A stretch of DNA of 45,535 nucleotides from a virus (IMGVR_UViG_3300029305_011610:77395-122929), one strand, 5' to 3'. Counted from the first letter of the stretch, positions 627 to 20,268 are shown. A program made the numbers and translations. The notes: generated by a model from the letters alone, not told the origin.

Positions 627-1630
627 TGGCTCTCGAAACTAAGGCTGCTATTTTTGTTTGCAGTCGTTGCGGTAGAGGTTTTTCCAATAGTAGAAATAAT
701 TTTTACGTAAATCACGGACCGATTAATAAAAGTTCTGGTCACCTTTCTTGTTGTAAAGCGTGCGCAGAAGAAGTTTTTGCGTATTACTTTGATGAGTGTC
801 GCGATTATAAGAAAGCAATGCGTCAGTTTTGCAGGAAGTTCGACATCTACTGGAGTGAGAAAATGTATGAAGTTGTTGAACGCACTAATACTCCACAAAG
901 CCTTCTCGCTGCATACATGAAACGAACAAACAGCATTAATGTAGCTGGTAAGTGCTACGATGACACTCTTCGAGAGGAAGGGATTCTATGGAACTTTGAA
1001 CCTCAGCCCATCATCACCGCAGAACCCGTTGCAAGTACTAATGTTGTCGAAGAAGCAGAAGATATCATTGTACCAGATGACGTAACATCATTTTGGGGTC
1101 CAGGATATACTCCGTCTATGTATATGGAGCTTGAACAGCGTCGGCATTATTGGATGACTCGCTTCCCCGCCGGCACAGAAATTGATATCGGTACTGAAGC
1201 TCTGATTAGACAGATCTGCAATCTGGAGATTGATATCAATAAGGATAGAGCTGCGGGTAAGCCAATTGACAAGAGCGTTAATGCACTAAATACACTATTG
1301 GGCAGTGCTATGCTTAAACCGGCACAAAAGACAAAAGACGACAGTGCATCTAACGATGTTCCGTTTGGTGTTGGTATTGGTTGGTGTGAGAAGCATAAGC
1401 CCATAAAAGAACCGTCAGAAGAATTTAAGGATGTTGACGGCATTATCAAATACATCACCATCTGGCTGTATGGGCATTTAGGTAAGATGATGGGTAAGAA
1501 AAATATTCATTCTAAGTTGTATGAAGAAGAAATGGAAAGATTGCGAGTTGTTCGTCCAGAATACCACGATATCGAGGATGAGGACTTACTATACGAAGCT
1601 CTATCGGAGTCCGATGAACAATGGCGTTAA
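626..1630 (+). CDS. Zn-finger protein immediately upstream of terL; putative small terminase subunit
   Basis: CSRCG...CCKAC motif. Overlaps both HU and terL. The function call is from position only. Confidence 0.5.
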   Translation: MALETKAAIFVCSRCGRGFSNSRNNFYVNHGPINKSSGHLSCCKACAEEVFAYYFDECRDYKKAMRQFCRKFDIYWSEKMYEVVERTNTPQSLLAAYMKRTNSINVAGKCYDDTLREEGILWNFEPQPIITAEPVASTNVVEEAEDIIVPDDVTSFWGPGYTPSMYMELEQRRHYWMTRFPAGTEIDIGTEALIRQICNLEIDINKDRAAGKPIDKSVNALNTLLGSAMLKPAQKTKDDSASNDVPFGVGIGWCEKHKPIKEPSEEFKDVDGIIKYITIWLYGHLGKMMGKKNIHSKLYEEEMERLRVVRPEYHDIEDEDLLYEALSESDEQWR

Positions 1631-1809
1631 CATATGATAATGTAAGCCAGCAGACATTGGATGCCGTTGAAGAATGGGCATCGTACTACAGAGCCAATCC
1701 ACATCGTTTCGCTAAAGACATACTTAACTTAGACCTTCGTTTATTTCAAAAGATACTGCTTGTATTAATGAATACAGCTGTGGCCTTTGTGTTTATCGCC
1801 TCGAGAGGT
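1621..1809 (+). CDS. terL: Large terminase exon 1
   Basis: WASYYRANPHRFAKDILNLDLRLFQKILL...FIASRG. Ends at GGT in the middle of Walker A, which continues as LGKS at 2067. Confidence 0.9.
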
Positions 1810-2066
1810 TAACTGTGGCCTCACCGCATAGTAATATGCGGACAAAATAAGCGGGCAAAATCGGTGAACGCTAAGTCTTATGATACGCCAACACCGAGGT
1901 AACCAGAGACTCACTGGCACCGTAACGCATAGCGGTTGTGCAACAAGAGGAGCAATAATACCGCCACGAGTGTCCGCTCTCCGAAATTATTCGGAGAAAA
2001 ATATATGCTGAACTTATAGGAAACTATAAGAGCTATCGGATAAAAAGCCGATAGGTTAACAACATG
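1810..2066 (+). ncRNA. Group I intron 1 in terL (257 nt, no ORF)
   Basis: Exon ends in U and intron ends in G. P1 is GAGGU/GCCUC with a U.G wobble. P7-like CCGTAAC-GCATA...TATGC-TGAAC. Removal restores ASRG|LGKSF. Confidence 0.9.
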
Positions 2067-2165
2067 CTAGGAAAATCTTTTCTCTCTGCAGTATTTTGCG
2101 TCATTCGCGCAATACTGTATCCAGGCAGCAAAATAGTCATAGCGTCTGGAACTAGAGGGCAGGCT
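2067..2165 (+). CDS. terL: Large terminase exon 2 (99 nt; absent from the ORF track)
   Basis: [33 protein letters not shown], typical terminase ATPase sequence following Walker A. Confidence 0.9.
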
Positions 2166-3225
2166 TAATTATGGGTCGCCGTTATAGCAATATAACGGGC
2201 AAATTCTACTGAATTGCTGGGACACCCTTAGAGCTTTATCACCAAAACGGAATGGCGAATAGCCATATACGGCAATGGTATGAAAACGATAAAGATTGGG
2301 CAATCAGCAGCCAAGCCTCGAACAGAGGAAGGTTCAACGACCATCCCTATATGGGAGTAGCTACGCAAGTTGCTGGCGTGGCGAAGTGGTAGACACCCTA
2401 ATAAAGGGTGAAGATATGGTCTCGTCTTTGCAGAAATGCAAAGTGGTAAAGGTTACCATGCCGAGGTGGCGCTCGGCACAAACTATTACAATATGATTAT
2501 TGAGGAATATATGGGAATTGTAAAAGATTTAAAGGGATTGAAATTCAATAGGTTGACTGTAATCGATCGAGCAGAAAATGACAAGAGCGGTCGTGCGCGA
2601 TGGATATGCAAGTGTGATTGTGGAAATATTAAAGAGGTTGTCGGCAAATCACTAACAAGCGGACATACAAAATCTTGCGGATGTTTAAATAAGGAAATCG
2701 TTAGCCAGCTATCTGTTCATGATTTACGTAACAAAAAATTTGGACAGCTCACGGTTATCGAGAGAGGTGACGACTACATAAGCCCAAAGGGGAAACACCA
2801 TGTTAGATGGGTCTGCAGGTGTGATTGTGGGACTACTGTATTAGTTTCTGCAAATCAACTAACTTCTGGGAAGACAAAATCTTGTGGATGCTTATCGCGA
2901 AAAGGTTCTCACATCGTCCATGGAGGATGTTATGACAGACTTTATAAGGTGTATCATAATATGAAAAACCGTTGCTATAACGAAAATTCTAAAGACTATA
3001 AATACTATGGTGGCCGTGGAGTAAGAGTATGTGAGGATTGGTTAAATGACTATTTGGCATTTAAGAGTTGGGCATATAAAAATGGGTATGACGATAAAGC
3101 TGAATTTGGAAAGTGTACTTTAGATCGAATCGATGTAAATGGTTCATATAGTCCTGAGAATTGTAGATGGGTAGATATGGAAGTTCAATCAAATAATCGT
3201 AGAAATGTAATAGCTAAAAGAAACG
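2166..3225 (+). ncRNA. Group I intron 2 in terL (1060 nt) carrying an HNH-type endonuclease ORF
   Basis: Core motifs GAATTGCTGG, AATCAGCAGCCAAG, GAAGGTTCAACGACCA, GAAGATATGGTC. U/G boundaries. Removal gives TRGQA|INVLEKIML. Confidence 0.9.
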
Positions 3226-3239
3226 ATAAATGTCCTTGA
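2511..3239 (+). CDS. Intron-encoded HNH-type homing endonuclease
   Basis: Two LTVI.R....W.C.CDCG...L.SG.TKSCGCL repeats, YYGGRGVRVCEDW, and TLDRIDVNGSYSPENCRW...QSNNRR. GAGGA RBS before ATG 2511; the ORF track starts at 2436, inside the ribozyme core. Confidence 0.85.
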   Translation: MGIVKDLKGLKFNRLTVIDRAENDKSGRARWICKCDCGNIKEVVGKSLTSGHTKSCGCLNKEIVSQLSVHDLRNKKFGQLTVIERGDDYISPKGKHHVRWVCRCDCGTTVLVSANQLTSGKTKSCGCLSRKGSHIVHGGCYDRLYKVYHNMKNRCYNENSKDYKYYGGRGVRVCEDWLNDYLAFKSWAYKNGYDDKAEFGKCTLDRIDVNGSYSPENCRWVDMEVQSNNRRNVIAKRNDKCP

Positions 3240-3755
3240 AAAGATTATGTTAGAGCTCAAACCCAAATCGCCAGCATTGGCGTTTGAAATAGACGAAAAA
3301 CAAACAAAAATGAATGGTACAAATGCCCAAATAGTATTTAAGAACGGGTCTTATATTAAGGTTGTTACATCTGGGGATTCGGCGCGCGGGAACCGTGCTC
3401 ATATCCTTCTAATCGATGAATTTAGACTCGTTCCCAAAGATACAGTTGATACCATTCTAAGCAAATTTTTAATTAGTAATAGAATGCCAGAGTATCTGGA
3501 TCTTTCTAAAGAAGAGCGTGAGTTAGAGTATGCAAAAGAGGCAAACAAAATCTTATACCTCAGCAGTGCTTACTTCTCAGATTCATGGGCTTATAAGAAA
3601 TGTGAAGATACTTTTAATGCAATGGCAGAGGGGAATATGCGACATTTTGTATGCGGGTTCCCTTATCAAATCGCAATTGAAGAAGGGCTTTTAAGCGTTG
3701 AGTCCGTTGAGGATCAAATGCGAGAGTCCGACTTTAGTGAAGTAAAGTGGAGCAT
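3226..3755 (+). CDS. terL: Large terminase exon 3
   Basis: INVLEKIM...ARGNRAHILLIDEFRLV (Walker B), LYLSSAY (motif III), ending in KWS plus AT. Confidence 0.9.
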
Positions 3756-4120
3756 AAACATTTCTGTGCTCCTTAAACCTATTGAACCCTGTCCGCTTGC
3801 AGGGGGTGTCACAATGTGATGCTAACAGGGAAACAGTGACTGTATTACAAAAGAAGGTTTGCTAAATCATAAATGAATAATGATAATCGCCCAAGAAAAA
3901 TACTCATGGATATACCTTTTGTGTAATATAAAACTCAATCCTGTGCCAAGCCGAGCAGTGCTCGGAAGGTGCAACGACTATCGAACGGGACTGCATAGCC
4001 AGTTAACCTAGTAGAGTACATCGGAGATAAGCACCGATGGAAGCAGTAGGGCTCATAATATATGAGCATGATATAGTCTAAACCCTATTAAATACCACGA
4101 AAGTGGGGGTAATAAAAACG
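3756..4120 (+). ncRNA. Group I intron 3 in terL (365 nt, no ORF)
   Basis: P1 GGAGCAU/GUGCUCC. P10 CAUUUC pairs with the 3' exon GAAAUG. Core GCTAACAGGG, AATCCTGTGCCAAGC, GAAGGTGCAACGACTA, GATATAGTC. Removal gives KWS-M|EMGAEWFG. Confidence 0.9.
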
Positions 4121-5102
4121 GGAAATGGGCGCGGAGTGGTTCGGTGCAGCAGAAGACGCTTGGTTTGATTTTGATTCAATATCAAGTTCAAGAAAAATTG
4201 AGTATCCCTTGCTCCCAAATCGGTTATCGTCAAAACTATCAAATAACCCTAAGGTTAAAATTCCGGCTAAAAAGCATGGAGAAGTTAGAATTCTTTCTGC
4301 GGACATTGCTTTAATGTCTAGCAGAAAAAATAATAACGACGCAACTGCAATATTCATCAACCAGATGCTACCCACAAAAGCAAGGCGATATATGAGAAAC
4401 ATTATCTATACTGATGCTGTCGAGGGTATGCACACAGAAGATCAGGCTTTAATGATCCGTCGCTTATACGAGGAGTATGAGTGTGATTATATAGTGCTTG
4501 ACTGTCAAGGCGTTGGTGCCGGTATTTACGACTGTCTCATTAGAGATATAGCTGACAGGGAATTCGGAGAGCTATACCCTGCGCTCTCATGCTGCAATAA
4601 TGCAGAGATGGCTGCAAGATGTACGGTTCCTGGGGCGCAAAAAGTAATATGGGCAATTAAAGCAAACGCGCAGTTCAATTCGGACTGTGCATTTTTATTA
4701 CGAGAAGCTTTCAGAAGCGGTCGAATCAGATTACTTACAACGGAATACGAAGGCGAAGCTCTTTTAAAGGAAATGAAGGGGTATGACTCTTTAGGCCCAT
4801 CAACAAAACAAGAACTTATGATGCCTTATATTCACACAACGCTTCTAATTAATGAACTTACGAAATTACAACACGAAGAAGCAAATGGTAGAGTTCGACT
4901 ATATGAACGTTCTGGAATGCGCAAAGACCGATACTCAAGCTTAGCATATAACTACTATGTGTCTGTGCAGCTAGAGCAAAAACTTAACAAAAAACTAAAT
5001 ACTAATAAAGAGGAAGATGTTTTTATCATCAAACCTCCTAACACTAAAGGAAAGGCGGTGAATAGAACCCGTGGCAAAAAGTCAGTCCCAAGCTGGTACT
5101 AA
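4121..5102 (+). CDS. terL: Large terminase exon 4 (nuclease domain); spliced CDS 1800 nt = 599 aa
   Basis: ILSADIALM, IVLDCQGVG and RKDRYSSLAY RNase H-like nuclease motifs. Exon sum 189+99+530+982 = 1800, in frame. Confidence 0.9.
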
Positions 5103-6585
5103 GAAAACGGCTACAAGAAAGAAGGTTCCGGAAGTAAAACCTGAACCAAAGAAGTCAGAGATTGAAGGTTATATCGGAATCTCAAGTAAGTTTGCTACCC
5201 TTAACAAGCTGATTACTCGAGATTTAAATAATAATACAACAACACCAACCTTCTCTTTATACACAAAGGATAATATTAATACATACTTGTCCGATCCTTA
5301 TCGTTATGAGAAGGAACTTCGTAAGGCAGTTGTTTATATTTACAACGCAAGCCCTCATTTTAGACGAGTTATAAACTATTTTGCTGCGCTTTCCGACCTG
5401 TCATATATCATTTCTCCGCATAGAATTGATCCAAAGAAAGCTAACGCATCAACATTAACACGTAACTATCGTAAGGTATCTGATGTTGTGTCGTCCATGA
5501 ATTTAAAATCTCAAGGCCCTAAAATTCTAAAAGTATGTCTGAGAGAAGACACATATTATGGAACAATGTGGGTGACTAACGAGAACATCATTTTTCAACA
5601 ACTGCCAAGCGATTACTGTTCAATTTCAGAAATCGAAGGTAATGTTGCTAATGTTACATTCGACTTTTCTTATTTTGACTCAAGACAAGCTTTGTTAGAG
5701 TATTATCCGCCAGAATTTCAAAAAAAGTACAATGTGTACAGAAACAATAGAACAGAGAAATGGATCACACTCGACTCCCCTACCTCTTTTGCCATAAAAG
5801 CAAATTCAGATATTTGGGATTATGCTATACCGCCGTTCGCTGGCGTGCTTCGAGAGATATATGACTTAGAAGACTACCGACAACTAAAACTATCCAAGAC
5901 AGCTTTGGAAAACTATGCAATGCTTGTCATGGATTTAGGGATGAATGAAGAAGGCAACTTCCAAATGGATCTTCCAAAAGCGAAAGAGTTCTGGAGAAAC
6001 CTAGACGCAGTACTGCCTGACGAAGTTGGTTCCGTCCTTTCCCCTATGCCAATCAATAAGATTAGCTTTGAAAAGTCTCACACTGCGAATACAGACACAA
6101 TAGCAGAAGCCGAACAAAATGTGTTCACAGCTGCCGGCGTTTCCTCGTTACTATTCAATAATGACAAAGCATCTGCAAATGCACTGCTTCTGTCTATTAA
6201 GGCCGACCAAGCTATCACATTTGGCATTGTGAGAAGTATTGAAGATATGGTTAATCGTTATATTCAGTCTCTGAGTTTTGGTAAAAACTTTAAAGTTACC
6301 TTCTTGGACGTCTCTCCGTATAACAGAGACGAGGTTGGCGATATGTACTTGAAAGCAGCACAATATGGCCTGCCAACGGTATCCGCGTATGCGGCTTCCC
6401 AGGGACTTCCTCAAGAGGACTTCGATTCTATGAATTTCCTTGAAAATGAAATCCTTGGAATTAAAGACGCTTTTATTCCTTTACAAAGCTCTTCTACGCA
6501 GAGCGCCTCCGCAGAGCCAGGAGCTCCAACGAAGGACGCTAAAGATTTAACCGAAAGCGGTGAGCAAAACCGAGAGGATGCATAA
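5071..6585 (+). CDS. Portal protein
   Basis: 504 aa, GTG start with RBS, directly after terL. Size and synteny fit a portal. Confidence 0.75.
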   Translation: MAKSQSQAGTKKTATRKKVPEVKPEPKKSEIEGYIGISSKFATLNKLITRDLNNNTTTPTFSLYTKDNINTYLSDPYRYEKELRKAVVYIYNASPHFRRVINYFAALSDLSYIISPHRIDPKKANASTLTRNYRKVSDVVSSMNLKSQGPKILKVCLREDTYYGTMWVTNENIIFQQLPSDYCSISEIEGNVANVTFDFSYFDSRQALLEYYPPEFQKKYNVYRNNRTEKWITLDSPTSFAIKANSDIWDYAIPPFAGVLREIYDLEDYRQLKLSKTALENYAMLVMDLGMNEEGNFQMDLPKAKEFWRNLDAVLPDEVGSVLSPMPINKISFEKSHTANTDTIAEAEQNVFTAAGVSSLLFNNDKASANALLLSIKADQAITFGIVRSIEDMVNRYIQSLSFGKNFKVTFLDVSPYNRDEVGDMYLKAAQYGLPTVSAYAASQGLPQEDFDSMNFLENEILGIKDAFIPLQSSSTQSASAEPGAPTKDAKDLTESGEQNREDA

Positions 6586-6770: not shown

Positions 6771-6782
6771 ATAACAAACGAC

Positions 6783-6823: not shown

Positions 6824-8374
6824 GTGATTTCGATGCCAAAGGTTGCTCGAATGACATACTCTTCTAGTCTCAATTCCTTGTGCGAAGTAAACTCATCTTT
6901 TGATACGGGTATTTTGCGAATTGCATATACCGGTAAGAACAGAAATGGTAGCCATATTTCAAAAGAAGTATTCGAAAAGTGTATACAGACAATGTATAAC
7001 TGCCCTATTGTATGCAATTACGATCGAGAAATTGACGATCTTGGTGGCCATGATTTAGAGGTAGTGCGAGATAGTAAAGGAAATCTAAAGTTAATCAACG
7101 CCACTGTTCCAGTTGGTGTTGTTCCAGAAAGCAGCAAGTATTTCTGGGATATCGTTGAAGAGAATGATGGAAGTACAAAAGAGTATCTATGCACAGATGT
7201 TTTAATTTGGAAGCGCCAAGAAGCGTATGAGAAACTAAAAAATGACGGCATCGTTGCACAGTCTATGGAGATTACCATAAAAGATGGTGAAATGATAGAC
7301 GGCGTATACACTATTTATGATTTTGAGTTCACTGCATTTTGCCTGCTTGGAGAAGACCATGAGCCATGTTTTGAGAGTGCAGCTCTCAGCTTATTCTCCT
7401 ATGATGAGTTTAAAAGTCAAATGGCAGAAATGATGAGCGAACTAAGAAAAACTTTTACCTTAACCACTCCCTCACTCGAGGATGGTAATAAACACCCACT
7501 CAACTTACAGAAGAAAGGAGATGAGAAGGTATTGGACGAAAAAATTGCATTGGTTGCAGAGTACGGCTTAAACATTGATGATCTTGATTTTTCTTTAGAA
7601 GATATCACTATCGAAGAGCTGCGTGAAAAATTCGAAGCTATGAAGGCTAATGAGCCTGCAGTAGATGACCCCACTCAGTACACCGCGTTGTATGCTCTGT
7701 CTGGCCAGATAGACGAAGAAATTCATCGTGCGCTGAGAGCAGTGACTGTCGAGCGTCCTTGGGGCGAAGCTCCACGATATTGTATGTTCGACTATGACAT
7801 CGCTCTGATGGAACTGTATTGTCATGATCTAGAAGATGATTGGAAACTGTATGGTTTTAAGTTCGCAATGAATGGCGACCGCGTTGAAATCGACTTTGAA
7901 AGCAAGAAGCGTATGAAGTTCGCAGTAGTTGAATTCGATGAAGGCGAACAAGCTATTCCTTTTGCTGATGTATTTGTAAACATTGTCGATAGAGCAACCG
8001 CAAACGATACCCAGTGGTCTGAAAAGTATCAGGCTATCTCCGACACCGTTGTTTCAATGGAGAGTGAACTTGGCGAACTCCGTCAATTTAAGACCGACAC
8101 CGTAAAGGCAGCAAAGGACGCCGAACGTGAAGAAGTCTTCGCTCAGTTTGAAGACTTAGTAGGTGTCGAAGAATTTGAAGTTCTGAAAGAAAACTGCGAA
8201 GATATGGATATGGACGCACTGCAGGAAAAATGCTTTGCAATTCGTGGTAAGCGCGCAGTGTTTACTAAGGCATCCGAACCCCGTAGTCCTAAGTTCGTAG
8301 TAGACAAGGCAAAGAACCAAGAGTCTAGCCCCTATGGCGATCTGTTTACCAAATACCCCGTAAGCCATCTGTAA
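6824..8374 (+). CDS. Prohead protease/scaffold fusion
   Basis: N-terminal protease-like domain (NRNGSHISK, QSMEI, FTAFCLLG...PCFESA) and an acidic coiled-coil C-terminus; upstream of the capsid genes. Confidence 0.7.
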   Translation: MISMPKVARMTYSSSLNSLCEVNSSFDTGILRIAYTGKNRNGSHISKEVFEKCIQTMYNCPIVCNYDREIDDLGGHDLEVVRDSKGNLKLINATVPVGVVPESSKYFWDIVEENDGSTKEYLCTDVLIWKRQEAYEKLKNDGIVAQSMEITIKDGEMIDGVYTIYDFEFTAFCLLGEDHEPCFESAALSLFSYDEFKSQMAEMMSELRKTFTLTTPSLEDGNKHPLNLQKKGDEKVLDEKIALVAEYGLNIDDLDFSLEDITIEELREKFEAMKANEPAVDDPTQYTALYALSGQIDEEIHRALRAVTVERPWGEAPRYCMFDYDIALMELYCHDLEDDWKLYGFKFAMNGDRVEIDFESKKRMKFAVVEFDEGEQAIPFADVFVNIVDRATANDTQWSEKYQAISDTVVSMESELGELRQFKTDTVKAAKDAEREEVFAQFEDLVGVEEFEVLKENCEDMDMDALQEKCFAIRGKRAVFTKASEPRSPKFVVDKAKNQESSPYGDLFTKYPVSHL

Positions 8375-8409
8375 GTGGCTACAAAACTAATATTTGCTAT
8401 CAAGCATGT

Positions 8410-8440
8410 GCCCGCTCAAAGAAGCGGGTCTTTTTATTTT
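8410..8440 (+). terminator. Intrinsic terminator
   Basis: GCCCGCT-CAAAGA-AGCGGGT followed by a T-tract. Confidence 0.7.
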
Positions 8441-8466
8441 AAAAATTAAAAGGAGGCTTATTTATT

Positions 8467-8958
8467 ATGAGCTATTGTGTAATTCGCACTGATCTGATGA
8501 GCGGCGAAACTCAGGCTGCTGATCTGGTTTCTCTGCGTTTCTATGACGCAAATGATGAAATGGCTGAAGTAGAAAACGGCACTATTGTTGAGCTGTTTGG
8601 CTACGAAGAAGGCCAGCGTGAAGTAATGAAGGCAAAGGCAGCAACTGCATCTTCTGATATTGAAAGCTGCGCGGTTGTAGCTGGTGTCGAGGTGATGTAC
8701 GACGAACGCAAGCGTAATCTGGATGAATACATCAACGAATCCGGTAAGGCTATCCGCGGCTATATCCCCCGTAAGCGCAATATGTACTCCATTACCAAGG
8801 AAGGCTTTGTAGATGAAGCTGTTCCTGTAGTTGGCGGTAAGGTTGGCATTGGTGCTGAAGGTAAGCTGGATGCTTCTGCTACTGGCTATGGCGAATGTGT
8901 AGCTATCGAAGAGGCTGGCCGTTACACCTATTACACCATTGAGATCACCAAGGCTTAA
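8467..8958 (+). CDS. Capsid decoration/minor head protein
   Basis: 163 aa, GGAGG RBS, strongly biased codon usage shared with the major capsid gene, directly upstream of it. Confidence 0.6.
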   Translation: MSYCVIRTDLMSGETQAADLVSLRFYDANDEMAEVENGTIVELFGYEEGQREVMKAKAATASSDIESCAVVAGVEVMYDERKRNLDEYINESGKAIRGYIPRKRNMYSITKEGFVDEAVPVVGGKVGIGAEGKLDASATGYGECVAIEEAGRYTYYTIEITKA

Positions 8959-8988
8959 TGGAATTTTTGAAAACGGAGGGAAATTACT

Positions 8989-10008
8989 ATGGCTGATATG
9001 AATGCAATTGTAAAGCTGGCCGTGGATAACTATCACGGCAAGGTAGAAAACTATTCTACCGAACAGTCCAACGAAGTACTGCGTCAGGCTCTGGTAGAAG
9101 CTAATGGTGGTAGCACTACTCTGGACTTTAAGAAGATTCGCGATGGCGAATGCAGAGGTCTGTTTGCTCTGATCGAGACTATCCTGTCTCGCACCGTAGT
9201 AGCTGGCCTACAGGGTGATGAGTTCTTTAACGCTATGGTCGAATTCCGCAATGTTGCAGAAGGCGACAAAAACCTATTCCTAGTTGAAGACGATGATCTG
9301 TTTGTCGTTGCTGAAGTAGCAGATGGCACTCAGGGCGTACGCCGTCAGAGACTGGGCGGAAGCTCTGAAGTCTCCATCCCCACCTCTCTGAAGATGGTTA
9401 AAATCTATGAAGAACTGAACCGTGTTCTGTCTGGTCGTGTTGACTTCAATCACTTCATTAACAAGGTTTCTGAATCTTTCCGTCAGCACCTGCTGAACGA
9501 AATTTACACTCTGTGGAGTGGCGTAACCGCTGAACAGATGGGCGGCACTACCTACTTCCCCGAAGCTGGCGTTTATGATGAAGACGAACTGCTGGATCTG
9601 ATTTCTCATGTAGAAGCAGCTGCTGGTGGTAAGCCCGCTACCATCGTTGGCACCAAGAAGGGTCTGCGTAACCTGAAGCCCTCTATCGACAGCGACGGCT
9701 ACAAGAACGATATGTATAACATGGGCTACATGGGCAAGTTCTACGGCACTCCTGTTGCTGTTGTGCCTCAGCGCCACAAGGTAGGTTCCACCGAGTTCGT
9801 TATGGACGACGATGTCATCACCATTATCGCTGGCGATAATCGCCCCATTAAGTGCATCTATGAAGGCGACCCCATTATGCTGATGGGTGATCCTATGCAG
9901 AATGCAGATCTTACTCAGACCTTCCTGTACGCAGAAAAGTACGGCCTGGGTCTGATTCTGGCTGGTGGCAACTCCGGCATCGGTCGTTACGAAATCGTTA
10001 ACAACTAA
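8989..10008 (+). CDS. Major capsid protein
   Basis: 339 aa, GGAGGG RBS, highly biased codon usage (CTG, GGC, GAA), synteny, followed by a terminator. Confidence 0.8.
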   Translation: MADMNAIVKLAVDNYHGKVENYSTEQSNEVLRQALVEANGGSTTLDFKKIRDGECRGLFALIETILSRTVVAGLQGDEFFNAMVEFRNVAEGDKNLFLVEDDDLFVVAEVADGTQGVRRQRLGGSSEVSIPTSLKMVKIYEELNRVLSGRVDFNHFINKVSESFRQHLLNEIYTLWSGVTAEQMGGTTYFPEAGVYDEDELLDLISHVEAAAGGKPATIVGTKKGLRNLKPSIDSDGYKNDMYNMGYMGKFYGTPVAVVPQRHKVGSTEFVMDDDVITIIAGDNRPIKCIYEGDPIMLMGDPMQNADLTQTFLYAEKYGLGLILAGGNSGIGRYEIVNN

Positions 10009-10638: not shown

Positions 10639-11085
10639 ATGGGTACTCCTTATGATGTTTTTACTGAATCATTTTTAAACAAAGTAAATGAGTATGACTT
10701 CATCTCGCTTCCAGAATACGACTCGATGTACATGGTTGATGGCTATATGAAAAAGGCGTGTTCGCAATTTAATCGATTATGCGAATACGACCTATCAAGT
10801 CGAGATGACCTGATCCGCGAGTTCGATGAAAGTATTCCTTACGAGGCTATTGATGAAATTGCCGATATTATCTCAGAAGGTATGCTCGTACAGTGGATGA
10901 AGCCGTATGTGTATAGGCAAGAAAATTTGCAGAATGTACTCAATACAGCAGATTTTTCAACCTACTCTCCTGCTGAACTTCTGTTAAGAATTAGCAACGC
11001 TTATGAAAAAGTACAGAAAGATTTTACCGCTATGATGAGGGAGTATTCATATAATCACGGAGATCTTACAGATCTGCATTTATGA
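10639..11085 (+). CDS. Putative head-tail connector
   Basis: 148 aa, AGGAGG RBS; call from synteny. Confidence 0.55.
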   Translation: MGTPYDVFTESFLNKVNEYDFISLPEYDSMYMVDGYMKKACSQFNRLCEYDLSSRDDLIREFDESIPYEAIDEIADIISEGMLVQWMKPYVYRQENLQNVLNTADFSTYSPAELLLRISNAYEKVQKDFTAMMREYSYNHGDLTDLHL

Positions 11086-11486
11086 TGAATACTGTATTGT
11101 TAGATACGTCTGCAGGTAAGCCAATACGAGTAGAGTTTATTAAAAGTTATTTTCACTCTCTTATAAACAAATTTTTCAAAATACTCCCAATGTATGAAGA
11201 TAACGAAGTAACTCTCTGTGAGTATATGCGAAATCTGCAATCCGAGCTAATTGGTTTTCAGAACCTACTACTTGATTTTGGAACCGATGCAAATTTGATC
11301 TATTTACTATCCGTTCTTGAGTACCTGATAGATATGCATTCCTGTTATGGATTTGAGCTAAATAAGGCGCTTATAAAGCGAGAAGTATTCGGCGCTATCA
11401 GTGTATGCAAAAAAATGGAGCAAAGATGTCATGATATTATTTCATCGCGACAATCCGACAATCAACAAACTTCGGAGGTGTGCTAA
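11082..11486 (+). CDS. Hypothetical helical protein in the head-tail module
   Basis: 134 aa, ATGA overlap with the upstream gene. Confidence 0.65.
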   Translation: MMNTVLLDTSAGKPIRVEFIKSYFHSLINKFFKILPMYEDNEVTLCEYMRNLQSELIGFQNLLLDFGTDANLIYLLSVLEYLIDMHSCYGFELNKALIKREVFGAISVCKKMEQRCHDIISSRQSDNQQTSEVC

Positions 11487-12253
11487 TGAGTGTATGGGAT
11501 ATGTATAGCACACGAATCAACGCCAAGTCATCTAATAGAGATGTAATTGTTGATCGTACTCAAAAATACATAACTAAAAAACTAAGAGATAGCGCATCTT
11601 ATTTTAATGTAAGGATAGACGATATTTCGCAAAATGTTGCAATTATAAACACAGACAACCTTAACGAGAAGTTTATCTACTCTTTACCAAACGAAGATAT
11701 CCCTCACGGTGGTCTTGTAGAATGGATGGATAACTATTGGTTAGTCACAGAGAGAGATGCAGCTTCAGAAATGTATACTCGCGCCAAGATGATTCAATGC
11801 AACTATCTGTTACGTTGGATAGACAAAGATAAAGTTATCCATGAGCAATGGTGTGTTATTGAGGACGGTACGAAATACCTTACGGGCGCTTATTCTGATA
11901 GAGATTTTATTACAACAAGAGGCGACTCGAGAATTGTAATGACTATCTCAAAGAATGAACATACAACTAAGTTTAATAGAAGCAATCGTTTTCTGATTGA
12001 TGATGAAGACAGTAGTATGATGCTGGCTTACGAACTTACTAAGCCATATAAACTTAGTAATGTCTATAACAGAAAAGGTGTGTTCAAATTTGTACTGCAA
12101 GAAGTGAATACGACGGATAACGATAACATAGAACTTCGTATTGCAGATTACTACAGTCATTTTTCTGAAGATGGCCAAGAAATTGAGGCTTCAGAAATTA
12201 CGATTACACCAGAAGAAAATATAGACGATTTAGGAAGGCAGGTGTGGCTGTAG
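11486..12253 (+). CDS. Putative head closure/head-tail joining protein
   Basis: GGAGG RBS, TAATG coupling, beta-rich sequence; synteny. Confidence 0.55.
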   Translation: MSVWDMYSTRINAKSSNRDVIVDRTQKYITKKLRDSASYFNVRIDDISQNVAIINTDNLNEKFIYSLPNEDIPHGGLVEWMDNYWLVTERDAASEMYTRAKMIQCNYLLRWIDKDKVIHEQWCVIEDGTKYLTGAYSDRDFITTRGDSRIVMTISKNEHTTKFNRSNRFLIDDEDSSMMLAYELTKPYKLSNVYNRKGVFKFVLQEVNTTDNDNIELRIADYYSHFSEDGQEIEASEITITPEENIDDLGRQVWL

Positions 12254-12753
12254 TGGATTTTGAAGAGTTTTATACGGATTATAAAAACCAGCTAATGAAA
12301 GACCTGCTTACAGATGATGGCATTGTTCGACTTATCGATAATGATTCTATTAATAATGTTACTTCTCTTGCTTATAAAAACGTGTTTCCGTATGAGTATA
12401 TACCGGAAACCATTGAGTACGGCGAGACGTATATTTGTTTTGATGTTGATTTACAAAAATCTATGAGCAAGTCAGTGCTTGCGCCAGTTATCTACGTGTG
12501 GGTATTCACACACAAATCATTGCTAAAGCTTCCAGAAGGTGGAGTCCGTGTAGACAAATTAGTTGCTAAGATAGCAAAAAAATTAAATGGCAGCAGGCAT
12601 TATGGACTCGGAACATTAGACCTGTACTCAGTTAAGCGCTTTGCTCCGTTGGATGATTATCAAGGGAAAGTCATGACTTTTTACGCAGAGGATTTCAATC
12701 AGATCTCTAGCACAAAGAAAGTACCTCCGTCTAATAGAAAGAAGGGCGTTTGA
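12244..12753 (+). CDS. Putative tail terminator/completion protein
   Basis: 169 aa, GTG start; synteny. Confidence 0.5.
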   Translation: MAVVDFEEFYTDYKNQLMKDLLTDDGIVRLIDNDSINNVTSLAYKNVFPYEYIPETIEYGETYICFDVDLQKSMSKSVLAPVIYVWVFTHKSLLKLPEGGVRVDKLVAKIAKKLNGSRHYGLGTLDLYSVKRFAPLDDYQGKVMTFYAEDFNQISSTKKVPPSNRKKGV

Positions 12754-13469
12754 TGGCTAGTTTGCTATATGCAACCGAGTGGCCTGTTAACAAGGAAAAC
12801 ACCATCAGTATATACTTGCCAACAGTAGGTCAAATTATTGATGATGAAGATCGATACTATGATATGGTGTATCGATTAACTGCTATGCCTATAGATTTAA
12901 TGGTTCAATTAGACGAGATTGGAATTGATTTTAGTACTGTTGATGACTTTCATCTATTCCTATCAATGCTTAACGGAATGAAGAATACAGATATGAGTCT
13001 AATATTCGGAGATCTTGATTTGACCAAATTTGAGTTTGGCGTCGACGTAAAAAACGAAGACCTAGCATTAATCAATGAAGATGACGATATCGTTATCGAC
13101 AGAAAAACATACCTCCAGATCACAGGTGTATTAAGAAAGCTCCATCGTCTGGAAAAGGATATAAGAAAGCCTGGTAATGAAGAGGCTAAAAAATATATGC
13201 TCGAGCGTGCAAAAAAGAAGTACAAACGTAAGAAAACGAGAAAATTTGAGTCACAGCTCGAGCCTCTAATTGTTGCGATGGTAAACACCAAGGAGTTTAA
13301 ATATGACTATCAGAGCGTTCGCGAAATCTCTATTTATCAGTTTAATGAGAGTGTTTACCAGATAATCAAGCGAGTCGATTATGATAATCGAATGGTCGGT
13401 ATTTACACCGGCTCAATAAGCGCCAAAGAGTTTAAGCCTGAAGATCTTAACTGGTTGGTGCATAAATAA
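12750..13469 (+). CDS. Hypothetical tail-module protein
   Basis: 239 aa, overlaps the upstream stop codon. Confidence 0.65.
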   Translation: MMASLLYATEWPVNKENTISIYLPTVGQIIDDEDRYYDMVYRLTAMPIDLMVQLDEIGIDFSTVDDFHLFLSMLNGMKNTDMSLIFGDLDLTKFEFGVDVKNEDLALINEDDDIVIDRKTYLQITGVLRKLHRLEKDIRKPGNEEAKKYMLERAKKKYKRKKTRKFESQLEPLIVAMVNTKEFKYDYQSVREISIYQFNESVYQIIKRVDYDNRMVGIYTGSISAKEFKPEDLNWLVHK

Positions 13470-14327: not shown

Positions 14328-14596
14328 TGGCTACGTTTATAAAAACTTGTCGCGTATGTGGTAAGGAATATGAGGTGTGTGCTACTGCAAGACGTGTTGA
14401 CGGAGTATTTCGTTGGCAAGAAGTAGCGTGCTCTCCAGACTGCGGCGAGAAATACCTCGCTGCAGTCCTTAGAAATAGAGCAGGAGTTGAAGAGCAAGTT
14501 GAATATTGCGACACATACGAAGATATAGAAGATGATGTTGAGGACGATGATCCAATCAACGAAGAAGACGACGATATTGAAATTGAGCTCCTGTAA
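14327..14596 (+). CDS. Small Zn-finger protein with an acidic tail
   Basis: CRVCGKEYEVC...CSPDC and a D/E-rich C-terminus; TAATG coupling. Confidence 0.7.
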   Translation: MATFIKTCRVCGKEYEVCATARRVDGVFRWQEVACSPDCGEKYLAAVLRNRAGVEEQVEYCDTYEDIEDDVEDDDPINEEDDDIEIELL

Positions 14597-14598
14597 AT

Positions 14599-14620
14599 AA
14601 GGGCGGCATATGCCGCCCTT
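14599..14620. repeat. Perfect 22-bp palindrome, probable terminator
   Basis: AAGGGCGGCAT|ATGCCGCCCTT. Confidence 0.7.
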
Positions 14621-14646
14621 GAACTATTTTTTCGCGAGGTGAATCG

Positions 14647-15216: not shown

Positions 15217-15235
15217 ATTAAAGGAGAGTTACATA

Positions 15236-15817
15236 ATGAGCAAGAATGCTAAAAAGGTTTCTATTTCTCAGGTAGATAAGATTATGAAGGAATACTTTGA
15301 ACTAACAAAGAATGTAGAGTGGAAGGGCATTGATATCACAGTCACCAAGTCCCTATCTTTAGCCGACATGCTTCAGTTTTGCAATGATGTTGTGAAGACT
15401 TGCACTAACCCCGATAATGGCGGTTACATGCCCGAACTAAAAGACTTCGCAATTCGTATGAATGTCGTTGAGATGTACTCCAATGTAAAATTGCCTGATA
15501 ATCTCGAGCACAAATATTATATTCTGATTAACTCAGGGCTGGTTGAAGCAATTCTTGAGCATGTTAACACCAACCAGTATTTCGAACTGGTTGAATCCAT
15601 CAATGATAAGTTGAAAGCAATTGTAGATGCTAATACTGATGCCATTGAAAAACAATTAAACGAAGTCGCTCATGCATTCGAGCAAATGCAAGCGAACATG
15701 GAAACCGCAATGAATGGTTTGGATATGTCCGTTCTCGAAAGATTAGCAAACACATTCGGCGATGAGGATGTAATGAATAAAGCAATCTTATCTTATGTTA
15801 AGGATAGTGCTGAATAA
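15236..15817 (+). CDS. Hypothetical protein, possible tail assembly chaperone
   Basis: 193 aa, helical, AAGGAG RBS; lies between major tail and tape measure. Confidence 0.6.
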   Translation: MSKNAKKVSISQVDKIMKEYFELTKNVEWKGIDITVTKSLSLADMLQFCNDVVKTCTNPDNGGYMPELKDFAIRMNVVEMYSNVKLPDNLEHKYYILINSGLVEAILEHVNTNQYFELVESINDKLKAIVDANTDAIEKQLNEVAHAFEQMQANMETAMNGLDMSVLERLANTFGDEDVMNKAILSYVKDSAE

Positions 15818-16395
15818 TGGCTAGCATTAATATGGCGTCCGTAGAAAAGAAGATTCTTGCCTATGCAAACTCTGATAAAGGCAAGAAAAAAATGGATAAG
15901 ACGCTTGTCAAATATGTCAACCAGAATGTAGATACTACTGATGCAGGTAGTTTTGTTGTTAATAAAAAGCAAATGAAAAAAGCCGCTCAGGAGTTAGTTA
16001 GGTTTGTTAAACAGGCAGCAGCATCTGGCGAAGTAGCACCATCTGTTTTGGCCGATATTTCAACACTAACAGCTTCTAACCCGAAACATGTCGGAGGAAC
16101 AACATGGATGATAGAGCTTTCGTTTGGCGGCGATCTCGGAAGACCTTCATTACAACCCGAGAGATACGGTGGAGTAACAAATATTATTGCACTATTTAAT
16201 AATGGTTATCCAAAAGATGCAGGCAGATCAGAAGCAATATCTCATGTTTTTGGTCTCTGGGGTGATCGATACGTTTTTGCGAAACCATCTCGAGAAGCTT
16301 TAAACTTTATGCAGCAAGCTGTTAATGAGTTTAACACTAAATATGCGGCTTCTTACAATACATACGTTGAACTAGATGGAATATATGAAGGATAA
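15817..16395 (+). CDS. Hypothetical tail-module protein
   Basis: 192 aa, TAATG coupling. Confidence 0.65.
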   Translation: MASINMASVEKKILAYANSDKGKKKMDKTLVKYVNQNVDTTDAGSFVVNKKQMKKAAQELVRFVKQAAASGEVAPSVLADISTLTASNPKHVGGTTWMIELSFGGDLGRPSLQPERYGGVTNIIALFNNGYPKDAGRSEAISHVFGLWGDRYVFAKPSREALNFMQQAVNEFNTKYAASYNTYVELDGIYEG

Positions 16396-16506
16396 GTGTT
16401 TATCTATTTGCTAAAAGCTATGCATTTAAAATATATTTGTAAACCGGTTGTTAATTTGACGTGTTTGATGTACAATTGTACTAATAATTGTACAGAGGGT
16501 GATGTA

Positions 16507-16677
16507 ATGGTTTCTACTAAAACTAAAGTTCCATCTAAAAATCAAGACAAAATTAAGTCCGACCGAGAATGCAATTTTTCGCTTCAGCCCGGTAGTGTAA
16601 AACCTTTCAACATACCTGAAATGACTGGAAGTAAATCGGGCAATCAGGCAGATAGTACATCCAAGAAGGAGGATTAA
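16507..16677 (+). CDS. Small hypothetical protein in an AT-rich moron (56 aa)
   Basis: GAGGGTGA RBS before ATG 16507; the ORF track start at 16396 has no RBS. Confidence 0.5.
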   Translation: MVSTKTKVPSKNQDKIKSDRECNFSLQPGSVKPFNIPEMTGSKSGNQADSTSKKED

Positions 16678-17273
16678 TTATCGATACTATCATATCAGCA
16701 ATAGATAATATCCCTAATCTATTACAGTACTTCATTTCGGGATATTGGTCTATTTATATTTTTAATACATTCGGCCCGAGGAAAACATCTAATTCCAATA
16801 TAGTTATTCTTTCGTGCGTTCTAAGCTATATTTATCTTTCAATTGTAGCGTTTGCTCGATTAAAAATAACAATAGTAGGAAATGTTCCAGATCTGGCAAT
16901 CTACAACTCTTTCTTATCTATTATAATAGGTACACTTCTATCCTCCATTCTTTCTGTCATCTTTTCTTCCAAAATATTTTCGAAGATTACAACCAAGTTA
17001 TTTAAAAAGACGATAAGTGACAGCATTTGGAGAGATGTGCTGGATTTAACCAACGGATCGAATTTGAAAATTTATTTGAATGGGTCTGATTATTATATTA
17101 TAGGACATTTCAAAAACATTGACGAAAACGAGTCATGGTTGGCAGTATCTGCTTTTGGTAAGTTCGACAAGACAACCAACAAACCACTAGAGAGCGAGCC
17201 ATCTTTTTTGGATAAGCCAAATGTAATATACACTGTCAGACTGTCTGATGTAGAGCATATCGAAATATTTTAA
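16677..17273 (+). CDS. Multi-pass membrane protein with a non-canonical start (ATT 16677 or ATC 16680), about 198 aa
   Basis: The frame is open from 16677 through the track ORF 17037..17273. AGGAGG RBS at 16667-16672. Hydrophobic segments (LLQYFISGYWSIYIF, IVILSCVLSYIYLSIVAF, FLSIIIGTLLSSILSVIF) are followed by a soluble beta-rich domain. Confidence 0.7.
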   Translation: MIDTIISAIDNIPNLLQYFISGYWSIYIFNTFGPRKTSNSNIVILSCVLSYIYLSIVAFARLKITIVGNVPDLAIYNSFLSIIIGTLLSSILSVIFSSKIFSKITTKLFKKTISDSIWRDVLDLTNGSNLKIYLNGSDYYIIGHFKNIDENESWLAVSAFGKFDKTTNKPLESEPSFLDKPNVIYTVRLSDVEHIEIF

Positions 17274-17278
17274 ACATA

Positions 17279-17346
17279 ACCCCTTGCGGAAGCAAGGGGT
17301 GTCTTTATATTTACTTTCCCTGCCACGACTATGTCGTGGCTTTTTT
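17279..17346 (+). terminator. Two tandem hairpins closing the moron
   Basis: ACCCCTTGC-GGAA-GCAAGGGGT (17279-17300) and GCCACGAC-TAT-GTCGTGGC-TTTTTT (17322-17346). Confidence 0.7.
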
Positions 17347-17407
17347 CTGTTTTACAGTCCATGCGTGAGCATGATCTGTTTACACCACATAAAAGGATGG
17401 TGAGACA

Positions 17408-18643
17408 ATGGCAGATATTTTGCTTTCTTTTGGTTTAAAGCATAATGCTGCGTTAGACGAAAATTTAGCCGGTGATTTAAGTGCGGCAATAAAAAAAGTC
17501 GAAGCAAGCGCTCCAAAGATAAAAGTCGGGGTGCAAATCGACCCAAATTCACTAAATACGTTTAAGACACAACTTACAAGAATTGTTAACAGTGTTACTA
17601 CTGGGACCGGCAAGCCGGTTTCTTTGAAGATAGATGGGCTTGGTAATATTACTGCTGATGCAGATAAGGCAGCCAATGCTGTGAAAAAGGTTGGTGATAC
17701 AGCAAAACAAACAGCAGCAAGCGTTAGTTCTGTAGGAAATAAGGTTAGCGCCACGTTTAAAACAAAAGCTCTTGACCAACTGGACAAAAAAATTGAAAGA
17801 CTAAGGAAGAATCTCCAAAACTGGTCTGCGGCAGCAAATTCCGATAAGACTGCCGGATATTACGACGAACTTACAAAAGCATTAAATAAATATATTGAAG
17901 TAAGAAAAAGAATAGAATCGTTTGATGTTGGTAAAAAGAACGGCGTAATAAACTCAAATTTAGAGTCCGACATGATGTCGGAGATAAAACTCATTGACGA
18001 TACCGTTAGCGGAGCAACGAGAGAGATTAAGGACGCAGATAAAGCAACAAAATCTTGGGGGGGTAGACTTGGCAGTTTGGCAGGAAAGTTTACCACATGG
18101 CTGTCTGTTTCACAGGTCATAATGCAGATTTATACTGCGCTCAAGAAAATGGTAACAACCGCAATCGAAGTTGATACTGCGATGACCGAATTAAAAAAGG
18201 TTACCAACGAAACAGACGCTACGTACGATAAGTTCTTAGATAACGCCGCAACTCGAGCAAAAGAAGTTGGTGCTACGTTAACTGATGTGGTTAATGCAAG
18301 TGCGTCCTTTGCAAGACTTGGCTATGATATTGACGAAGCATCTAATCTTGCGGATACCGCAATTGTATACAAAAACGTAGCAGATGATATTGACTCAATT
18401 GACGTCGCGTCGTCTAGTATTATTTCGACAATGCAAGCTTTTGGGGTTGAAGCTAATAATGCAATGAGCATCGTTGATAAATTCAATGAGGTTTCAAACA
18501 ATTTCGCCATTACGTCTGGTGGTCTGGGTGAGGCATTGCAGAGATCTGCAGCGGCAATGAATGCCGCCGGCAACACTTTGGATCAGACTGTGGCATTGGT
18601 AACAGCCGCTAATACGGTAGTTCAGAACCCTGAATCTGTGGGT
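17408..18643 (+). CDS. Tape measure protein exon 1
   Basis: TP901-type tape measure core (AMTELKKVT, FARLGY, DKFNEVSNNFAIT, ALVTAANTVVQNPESVG); ends in GGT. Confidence 0.9.
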
Positions 18644-19924
18644 GGACTTGCGCCCAACAGCGTGGTAACACGCTGGAAGTAGATAGCTATATCGGTTAAA
18701 GGCTGGAGGCAGCTCAGACCGAGGAAAGATATTGTAGTACGCTCCCGTGGTAGTTAGGATGGCCACGGGTTTTATTATTTAATGAGAAGGTGAAACGATT
18801 AATAAAACAGGTGTAAGCATACCATGTGAAACATGCGGAAAAATGATATATAAAACGAAATATCAGTATGAGAATAAATCTCATCATTTTTGCTCAAACA
18901 AATGCCAGGCAATAAAAAGAAGAGAGCTTGCTTTTGAATATAGGCCTTGCGAAGTGTGTGGTTCCGAAATGTATTTATCAAAGAAGTCAACAAAACGTTT
19001 TTGCTCAAATGAGTGCCAACACATTTGGCAACAGGGCAATACAGGATTTAAGAACTCACGTTTCAAAGGTGGATATGTCGTCTGTGAAACGTGTAAAAAG
19101 GAGTTTTTAGTAGGACAATATATATACGAAAGCGGCAGGCATCATTTTTGCTCACAAGAATGTAGGCAAGCGTGGTATGCGAATGTCTGGTCTCAATCTG
19201 ATGATTGGAGAAACGAGTCAAGAATAAGAGCTGCTTCGCTAATGAAAACTAACAAAGTTACGGCCCAGACTCGTCCGCAGGTATTAGTCAACGAATTTTT
19301 GGAAGAAATGAATATACCATATATCAATGAAAAAACATACGATTATTACTCTGTTGACAATTATCTTATTGATCAAAATTTAATCATTGAAGTTATGGGG
19401 GACTATTGGCATAGTAGTCCATTAAAATATGTAGAAAAGATTAACGATAAGCAACGGCATATCATTTCTAGATATAGCTAAAAAAACATACATTAAGAAT
19501 TATTATAATATTGACATTCTATATTTATGGGAAACTGACATAATTAAACGCCCAGAGCTATGCAAAAAGCTGATTAAGCTTTATATAAGTAATAACGGTA
19601 TTTTAGAAAATTATCATTCGTTTAATTATAGTTTAGAGCACAACATTTTGACATTAAATAAAAATATCATTATACCAAAACAAGAATTAGAGAAAATCGC
19701 GTGCTAATGTCCTAACCATTTTGCTCGCGGTATGTACTACAATAAATCCGTAACGACTGTAATACTCATTATGGTAACATAATGAGTTCCGCTATCCCCC
19801 GTCTCGGGTGAAGATACAGTCTGAACTCACACGATAACCTAAAAATGAAATGTGAGAGATAGCCAGAAATGACTATCCGCCACTTTTGTGGTCAGTACCG
19901 GGTTGCCGGGAAAGTAACAGATTG
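18644..19924 (+). ncRNA. Group I intron 4 in the tape measure gene (1281 nt) carrying a degenerate endonuclease ORF
   Basis: P1 UGUGGGU/GCCCAACA. Core TATCGGTTAAAG, GACCGAGGAAAG, CCGTAACGACTG, GAAGATACAGTCTGAAC. The 11-bp stem TATTGTAGTAC (18730)/GTACTACAATA (19734) encloses the ORF. Terminal G at 19924. Confidence 0.85.
18798..19707 (+). pseudogene. Intron-encoded Zn-finger/PD-(D/E)xK (Vsr/DUF559-like) endonuclease, frameshifted near 19476
   Basis: Three CxxC...FCSxxC repeats and DNYLIDQNLIIEVMGDYWH. The frame stops at 19481, but the +1 frame 19477..19707 continues AKKTYIKNYYNIDILYLWETDI...C*. Probable ATT start at 18798 after AAGGTGA. Confidence 0.75.
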
Positions 19925-19943
19925 ACAACACTAAAAACAGTAT
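19925..19943 (+). CDS. Tape measure exon 2 (19-nt micro-exon)
   Basis: ACA ACA CTA AAA ACA GTA T = TTLKTV plus the first base of Ser. Joining gives NPESVG|TTLKTVS|MYLRAAKTEA. Confidence 0.85.
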
Positions 19944-20268
19944 CAGACGAAAGTCTGCGGTACGCGCGTACAGCAATGTGCGTGAAAAACAACCCACTGA
20001 ATTGCTGGAAATTCCCAAAGCCATTAGCGCTACAACGTAGAGATGAAACGCTCAAGCGTGAATGCGGCGAAAGCAGAAAAAAGCTAATGGATGGCATATG
20101 GTTAAATCCTAAGTGCTGTTATAACGGAAAATCAGCAGCCAAGCCTCGAACAGAGGAAGGTTCAACGACCATCCTGAGAAGGAGTAGGGTTACATCCCGA
20201 AGTGGTGGGCGTCCCAAGTGGATGAAGATATGGTCTGCTCTCATATGAAAATATGAGTTAACACAAGG
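19944..20268 (+). ncRNA. Group I intron 5 in the tape measure gene (325 nt, no ORF)
   Basis: Core GAATTGCTGG, AATCAGCAGCCAAG, GAAGGTTCAACGACCA, GAAGATATGGTC. The U/G rule places the junction at GTAT|CAGAC...AAGG|CAATG. Confidence 0.85.

Follow-up and report, generated by a model that had tools for sequence, protein, structure and literature searches.

Five candidate group I introns in the terminase and tape measure genes of an SPbeta-like gut prophage

Staphylococcus phage Twort reportedly carries three group I introns, with exon skipping, in the tail tube gene orf142, and the sunY (nrdD) intron of phage T4 is said to have a remote 3′ splice site. We describe here a related arrangement in IMGVR_UViG_3300029305_011610:77395-122929 (the window, meaning the whole stretch of 45,535 nucleotides [nt] that was analyzed), in which terL and the tape measure gene appear to be interrupted by three and two group I introns, respectively. 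The window makes up the final 45.5 kb of an IMG/VR provirus of 122,929 bp that is rated complete and whose late genes resemble those of Bacillus phage SPbeta. Introns in both of these genes have been described from prophages of the Bacillus cereus group, TMP-IVS1/2/3 in the tape measure gene and term-IVS1/2 in terL (Tourasse and Kolsto 2008; PMC2504315). Those introns are of types IA1/IA2, most lack a complete endonuclease gene, and they lie in the most conserved stretches; related introns are fitted to different sites through P1, their presence among related prophages is patchy, and the B. cereus E33L prophage has two tape measure introns and one terL intron. In the Bastillevirinae, terL and polymerase genes hold multiple introns, with two or three group I introns in terL, a small exon between two introns, exon skipping, and splicing shown in vivo (Weglewska et al. 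2025; PMC11878797). The terL introns there encode Vsr-type "HNH" endonucleases (phrog_559), and a GTP "on-switch" hypothesis was proposed; the tape measure gene is not mentioned in that paper.

The locus in the window is like the B. cereus-group cases in both host genes and in belonging to a Firmicute prophage, a likeness drawn from the published descriptions. It differs in having five introns rather than three, three of them in terL, in that both neighboring tape measure sites are filled together, leaving a 19-nt exon between them, and in its host phage, which is an SPbeta-like gut phage. With the Bastillevirinae it shares a multi-intron terL, a small inter-intron exon, and a phrog_559-type endonuclease; those phages, in contrast, are virulent Herelleviridae of Bacillus in which splicing has been demonstrated, whereas here it is deduced from DNA. 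As in Twort orf142, several group I introns in one essential structural gene make correct, ordered splicing necessary, although the gene and the phage family are different. Intron 2 of the window is like that of T4 sunY in having a complete core followed by a long 3′ tail that bears an open reading frame (ORF), with the 3′ splice site hundreds of nucleotides off; unlike in sunY, the ORF enters the downstream exon, where its stop falls 14 nt inside, and the helix that would loop it out is a proposal. A sequence-only reading of this DNA, which drew attention to the inserts, had called multi-intron phage genes uncommon, and the 2008 and 2025 cases (PMC2504315 and PMC11878797) show that this overstated their rarity. 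The locus is a densely occupied case of something already documented and does not represent a new kind of element. We consider it probable (about 0.88) that the inserts are five separate group I introns of IA type, belonging to at least four lineages, and that they entered two essential late genes at their most conserved motifs.

Gene structure and group I features of the five inserts

Both genes lie on the plus strand, terL in four pieces and the tape measure gene in three, all in stop-to-stop frames (Table 1). Joined, the pieces of terL encode 599 amino acids (aa) and those of the tape measure gene 2,071 aa, each with a single terminal stop; these are exactly the frames put forward in the sequence-only reading, and its five inserts are confirmed to the nucleotide by the joined frames and by gapless alignment to uninterrupted homologs at every junction. 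The terL pieces are about 43% identical to SPbeta YonF, and both intron-less YonF (589 aa) and TerL of Mammaliicoccus phage phi6255 (600 aa) are collinear with them, with YonF 120/121 crossing the intron 2 junction without a gap. In three IMG/VR relatives of 72% identity (L013, L014, and L015; relatives are labelled L0xx throughout), residues 1 to 599 align as one unbroken segment, and about 30 more terL relatives are likewise uninterrupted. The multiple alignment is gapless at FIASRG/LGKS (Walker A), GTRGQA/INVLEK, and EVKWS/MEMGAEW, where a solidus marks the junction; at the third (KWS/MEMG), a junction absent from the list in the sequence-only reading, the Met codon itself is split AU/G. 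Intron 1 is inserted inside Walker A, intron 2 after GTRGQA, and intron 3 at the junction of the ATPase and nuclease regions. The tape measure gene resembles YomI and a protein of Brevibacillus phage Sundance, and its two introns flank a GxxLKTxS motif, 19 nt apart. The six Sundance residues between 897 and 904 are supplied by the micro-exon, and more than 50 relatives, from a comparison that took in 68 fetched relatives, run uninterrupted through both junctions, as does phage Sundance. Boundaries in the intron-less homologs agree with those drawn here, and the junction peptides predicted beforehand (ASRG/LGKS, GQA/INVLEK, and SVG/TTLKTV/S/MYLR) can be read in the translation.

The signature that had been noticed from the sequence, with U as the last base of the 5′ exon, G as the last base of the insert, and a P7-like pairing, is present in all five inserts. 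The exon U forms a U-G wobble with the internal guide in P1 (4 to 7 bp), the last bases are G2066, G3225, G4120, G19924, and G20268, and a P7 of 5 to 6 bp can be drawn in each; from base composition, the chance of finding an exon-final T together with a terminal G is about 0.06 per insert. Group I identity was tested with Rfam RF00028 (gathering score, 50 bits). This covariance-model check, which the sequence-only reading had proposed, came out positive for introns 2 (83.5 bits at 2157-2443) and 5 (71.8 bits at 19960-20257) and below the gathering score for introns 1, 3, and 4. Intron 1 gave a full-model match at 1800-2030 (37.6 bits, E = 2.4e-8) and intron 3 a score of 22.1 bits (E = 0.011 in a 3-kb scan and 1e-4 in the genome scan); relative to shuffles, their fold z-scores were −5.1 and −3.3, respectively. 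Intron 4 gave a partial match only (14.9 bits at 19704-19835), because its P1-P6a and P6a′-P9 halves lie about 1 kb apart with the ORF between them. The scan of the 123-kb genome returned no group I match beyond the two genes. The string GAUAYRGUCU stands at J8/7-P7 in introns 2 to 5, with AUAUAUGCU in its place in intron 1, and occurs once more in the 123-kb genome. A possible sixth intron at GATAYRGTCT (genome position 52947) was rejected, as it lies inside a minus-strand ORF and has no group I signal.

Core helices could be assigned in each insert. In intron 1, P1 is formed by 1805-1809/1818-1822 (U1809-G1818), P3 by 1851-1857/1971-1977, P4 by 1861-1866/1892-1897, P7 by 1927-1931/2004-2008, and P8 by 1979-1985/1990-1996, with P7.1 at 1932-1964 and P9 at 2013-2030. 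Intron 2 has P1 at 2158-2165/2174-2180 (U2165-G2174) and P7 at 2339-2343/2417-2421. Its 3′ splice site lies about 780 nt away from the core; the segment 2483-2490 is the exact reverse complement of 3206-3213 (8 bp), and AUAA of exon 3 can pair with UUAU of the P1 loop. Intron 3 has a 7-bp P1 at 3749-3755/3766-3772 (U3755-G3766), P7 at 3976-3981/4073-4078, and the canonical core strings GCCAAG...GAAGGUGCAACGACUA and GAUAUAGUCU. The structure of intron 4 was drawn by hand and comprises P1 (GGGU/GCCC, 18640-18643/18652-18655, U18643-G18652), P2, P3 (GAUAGC/GCUAUC, 18682-18687/19791-19796), P4 (UCGGU/ACCGA, 18692-18696/18718-18722), P5, and a P6a (UUGUAGUAC/GUACUACAA, 18732-18740/19734-19742) that encloses the ORF, followed by J6/7 GUAAC, P7 (GACUGU/ACAGUC, 19755-19760/19816-19821), P7.1 (19764-19787), a short P8, and P9, with GAAGAUA at J8/7. 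In intron 5, P1 (19940-19943/19960-19963, U19943-G19960) is lengthened by a hairpin at 19944-19957, and P7 is at 20167-20171/20231-20235. The Rfam alignments of introns 2 and 5 have hairpin insertions that fall after the 5′ strand of P7 and before P3′, as in subgroup IA, and P7.1 holds that position in introns 1 and 4; the modelling of the introns as IA-type follows such hairpins and not a formal subgroup assignment.

Homologs of introns 1, 3, and 4 in relatives lend support to these helices. P3 and P7 are kept or covary in L043 (intron 1) and L080 (intron 4). In L043, the intron 1 homolog occupies the corresponding terL site, and its helices are preserved through 6 double changes. The intron 3 homolog in L037, at the same site and with an inserted ORF, differs by paired changes in P9 (CCAC/GUGG versus CUGC/GCAG), P8, and a P7.x hairpin when read by eye. 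L080 has a homologous intron, including the endonuclease gene, at the intron 4 site; 96.6% of cells in that alignment are paired and 13 pairs are changed on both sides, compared with at most 45% paired and at most 2 pairs changed in a control in which the partners were slid. The group I identity proposed in the sequence-only reading, with three introns in terL and two in the tape measure gene, holds.

Other kinds of insert were considered and rejected. Inteins do not fit, since stops in the host frame occur in every one of the inserts; introns 1 and 2 start with TAA, and the length of intron 5 (325 nt) by itself alters the reading phase. Group II introns were set aside because no group II family was found at any threshold in these regions and the ORFs are endonuclease-like rather than reverse transcriptases, and translational bypassing was discarded on insert length. 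Assembly chimeras were rejected because the joints recur in other runs. The metagenome comparison behind this last point took contigs from four runs, X2 and X8 among them, at the DNA level, and no RNA run was among those listed for the terL stretch. Several metagenome runs contain the sequence again, and contigs from other runs bridge the exon/intron joints with the same DNA arrangement.

Table 1. Coordinates of the exons, proposed introns, and intron-borne genes in the window
Feature	Coordinates	Strand	Description
terL exon 1	1621..1809	+	63 codons, ends ...ASRG in mid-Walker A; YonF 33-87 aligns to 1645-1809; ungapped versus uninterrupted homologs
Intron 1	1810..2066	+	Group I of IA-like type, 257 nt, with a single P7.1 hairpin and without an ORF
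terL exon 2	2067..2165	+	33 codons, LGKS...GTRGQA; YonF 89-120 aligns to 2070-2165; multiple alignment
Intron 2	2166..3225	+	1,060 nt; complete IA2-type core at 2166-2443, endonuclease ORF after the core, remote 3′ splice site
Intron 2 putative homing-endonuclease ORF	2436..3239	+	267 aa from first ATG; phrog_374 "HNH endonuclease," E = 4.6e-83
terL exon 3	3226..3755	+	YonF 123-294 aligns to 3232-3771; multiple alignment
Intron 3	3756..4120	+	Group I, 365 nt, without an ORF
terL exon 4, nuclease half	4121..5102	+	YonF 290-586 aligns to 4122-5021; Terminase_6C, weak match
Tape measure exon 1	17408..18643	+	412 codons; PhageMin_Tail, E = 1.4e-15; Sundance tape measure protein 588-897 aligns to 17765-18643
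Intron 4	18644..19924	+	Group I, 1,281 nt; the ORF forms a loop from P6a
Intron 4 endonuclease gene, frameshifted	18843..19716	+	N-terminal zinc finger and start of Vsr/DUF559-like nuclease motif in 18843-19481
Micro-exon	19925..19943	+	19 nt, TTLKTV plus first base of Ser codon; aligned to Sundance TALKTV and YomI NSLKTI without gap
Intron 5	19944..20268	+	325 nt, no ORF, IA2-type group I
Tape measure exon 3	20269..25229	+	1,653 codons including the split Ser; Sundance tape measure protein 904-1176 aligns to 20268-21191; relatives continuous across junction

Endonuclease genes, site occupancy, and mobility

The ORF of intron 2 is intact and probably starts at ATG 2511, after GAGGA; sequence searches of Pfam, NCBIfam, and PDB returned no match for it. 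The endonuclease gene of intron 4 matches phrog_1271 (1.4e-10), phrog_559 (1.2e-5; both "HNH/homing endonuclease"), and zf-FCS. It shifts frame near 19467-19486, at a 2-nt gap relative to L080, and its remainder (...LYLWETDI...) continues in another frame to about 19716. No indel is listed there in the DNA runs compared, and an X2 contig covers 18852-19507 without differences. In L080, the C-terminal domain of the gene is continuous, but the gene is broken elsewhere. Breakage in both intron 4 and L080 would be the expected decay after fixation. Judged by their coding content, intron 2 is probably still mobile, and introns 1, 3, 4, and 5 are most likely passengers inherited with the phage, because the endonuclease of intron 4 is frameshifted and introns 1, 3, and 5 have none.

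An allele without intron 2 occurs in a strain about 95% identical to the window. A 1,574-nt contig of run X8 follows 1500-2153, then has ten letters, and then resumes at 3224, so that exactly the 1,060 nt of the intron are missing, with twelve exon bases opposite twelve. The junction still encodes T R G Q A/I N although 5 of the 12 bases differ, all of them synonymously, and one of these changes turns the splice-site U into G. Intron 3 is retained in the X8 contigs, and so is intron 1, which lies on the very contig that lacks intron 2. Because introns 1 and 3 are retained and the last base of the exon is G, we take this contig to represent an intron-less DNA allele and not spliced RNA.

Occupancy of the other sites varies among relatives. 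In terL, site 1 is filled in L043 and site 3 in L037 and L040, the latter with an unlike intron (57.5 bits). In the tape measure gene, site 4 is filled in L080 and site 5 in L063, L064, L065, and L071 (77.7 bits against RF00028 for L063), and introns stand at additional sites in L117 and L084. None of the 68 fetched relatives has sites 4 and 5 both filled, and the micro-exon therefore goes back to two independent insertions. Introns 2 and 5 have an identical 45-nt core block and are 67% identical overall, with different P1 and periphery; among the remaining introns no mutual similarity was detectable. The relatedness of introns 2 and 5 and the dissimilarity of the others point to at least four sequence lineages.

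Some intron cores are shared more widely. No near-identical phage was found in the GenBank phage set, where the matches consisted only of 65- to 170-nt intron-core pieces in Staphylococcus/Mammaliicoccus phages and "bajarodcaudo virus 2." Rfam gave no group I match in either locus retrieved for the intron-1-like pieces. In the faecal metagenome runs, depth was in the hundreds over the intron 2 core, about 35 to 70 over the 3′ part of intron 1, and about 4 over exons. The high-depth intron stretches (1998-2066, 2297-2345, and about 20000-20170) have many loose ends at their edges, and short intron pieces are 80 to 90% identical to Staphylococcus and Mammaliicoccus phages. The same cores are present in many other elements.

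Splicing and competing explanations

In the proposed mechanism, each ribozyme would pair its internal guide with the last bases of the 5′ exon in P1, where a U-G pair marks the point of cleavage, draw on exogenous guanosine, and join the exons behind its terminal G, yielding a 599-aa TerL and a 2,071-aa tape measure protein. In intron 2, the 8-bp helix described above probably loops out the ORF and brings the remote 3′ splice site near, together with a short P10. As first claimed, virion formation would need all five splicing events; this follows from the gene structure, because intron 1 splits Walker A and the tape measure reading frame depends on the micro-exon. Loss of the 19 nt shifts the frame, with a stop about 35 codons further, so that skipping the micro-exon (18643 joined to 20269) would give an N-terminal tape measure fragment of about 447 aa. 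Skipping terL exon 2, which is 99 nt long and in frame, would give a TerL without Walker A. Because the micro-exon would have to act for intron 4 as its 3′ exon and for intron 5 as its P1 partner, it might force an order on tape measure splicing; that it does so, and that alternative splicing tunes phage assembly if the skipping products are regulated in amount, strikes us as a highly doubtful prospect.

One could draw the end of intron 2 differently, with an intron of only the 278-nt core (2166-2443) and a free-standing endonuclease gene that divides terL so that it yields two polypeptides. By itself, 2157-2443 satisfies the covariance model in full, with a terminal G aligned at 2443, and ATG 3247 could start a downstream TerL fragment. 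Splicing at 2443, however, would lead to a stop after one codon, and in the natural intron-less allele the core and ORF are lost as one 1,060-nt unit. Across 2165/3226, YonF and other homologs stay collinear without the loss of a residue, and the bases after 2443 cannot make the pairing with the P1 loop UUAU that AUAA of exon 3 can. We regard this arrangement as extremely unlikely and keep the 1,060-nt intron.

Several points weigh against five functional group I introns. Three of the five fall below the Rfam gathering threshold, and the structure of intron 4 is hand-drawn. P10, sought by eye, is plausible in intron 2 only, with none convincing for introns 1, 4, and 5. Each covariation test compared only two sequences, and the structures it relied on were taken from the window itself. 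The short P8 hairpin assigned in intron 4 is absent from L080, which leaves either the intron 4 P8 model or the activity of the L080 intron uncertain. Run X8 is labelled transcriptomic ("probably DNA"), so that the contig without intron 2 could in principle be spliced RNA, and splicing of all five introns is read from genomic sequence alone. The subthreshold scores and this last point, along with the frameshifted endonuclease gene of intron 4, would also suit dead introns, one or more of which would leave the prophage defective, with terL or the tape measure gene reduced to a pseudogene. But every exon frame is open, the conserved motifs are kept, and no other lesion is present; all core helices are intact and are maintained by compensatory change in the homologs of introns 1, 3, and 4; and the record is a provirus rated complete whose sequence recurs in several metagenome runs. 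A defective prophage is therefore very unlikely on these observations.

If all five introns do splice, they might have been co-opted, such that five GTP-dependent splicing events gate virion assembly by time or by the energy state of the cell. Consistent with this, all five lie in two essential late genes and the rest of the 123-kb genome lacks a group I match, the micro-exon could impose a splicing order or permit frame-shifting exon skipping, and the GTP "on-switch" idea and real exon skipping have been discussed for Bastillevirinae and Twort (PMC11878797). Most relatives, however, are intron-free at these sites and some have a single intron, so this type of phage can do without them; in one strain intron 2 alone is missing, the endonuclease genes are in decay, and the introns come from several unrelated lineages. 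We consider gating unlikely. The timing or physiological checkpoint suggested in the sequence-only reading finds no support here, nor is it new, given the GTP-sensing "on-switch" of PMC11878797. Patchy occupancy, a decaying endonuclease gene, and insertion in the most conserved motifs are more simply fitted by selfish mobile elements, and the five group I introns are best seen as genomic parasites rendered harmless by splicing rather than as a regulatory device.

The locus offers a compact natural test bed in which each piece has precedent. A single late operon holds five introns that belong to at least four lineages, and two of the ribozymes are separated by an exon of only 19 nt. The remote 3′ splice site of intron 2 recalls that of sunY, with the endonuclease ORF overlapping the exon, and there is a natural intron-less allele in which five synonymous changes recode the homing site.

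Annotation, related introns, and neighboring elements

Gene calling that is unaware of introns would present both essential genes, here and in many gut relatives, as fragments with stray "HNH endonuclease" genes, distorting gene counts, protein clustering, and completeness calls. The expectation that automated annotation fragments such genes is borne out by Thomasclavelia phage TR-TP1 (PQ571309.1; L006 6518-14347), which has a related tape measure gene deposited as separate coding sequences, divided by two "HNH endonuclease" genes. These interruptions are probably unrecognized introns, the first of which lies further downstream than sites 4 and 5.

Introns were also noted in other genes of relatives. 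A contig of the X8 strain follows 7992-9216 of the window and then continues with sequence like the intron 5 core (19970 onward); this relative seems to have an extra group I intron at about 9216 in a phrog_4088 gene (ORF 8989-10008), a probable head gene that is uninterrupted in the window. In L040, the insert at terL site 3 (5405-5973) consists of a group I core followed by a RAGATH-18 RNA (61.7 bits), and further downstream three additional group I introns occur within 2 kb in its head genes (11048-12892).

The nearest sequences to the provirus come from animal-gut and faecal metagenomes. A host scan of genome contigs returned only four metagenome bins, with discordant labels (Prevotella, Oscillospiraceae, Clostridiales, and Alistipes). 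Elsewhere in the window, 37829-39374 holds a diversity-generating retroelement: a 137-nt repeat pair, 89% identical (37829-37965, at the 3′ end of ORF 36273-37979, and 38060-38196), precedes an RT-18 RNA (66.6 bits, 38238-38309) and an ORF for a reverse transcriptase (38295-39374; RVT_1, E = 1.5e-14). Outside the window, at genome positions 49500-51600 (L119 85-2054, minus strand), there are at least 10 tRNA genes with a "drum" RNA (76.9 bits) among them.

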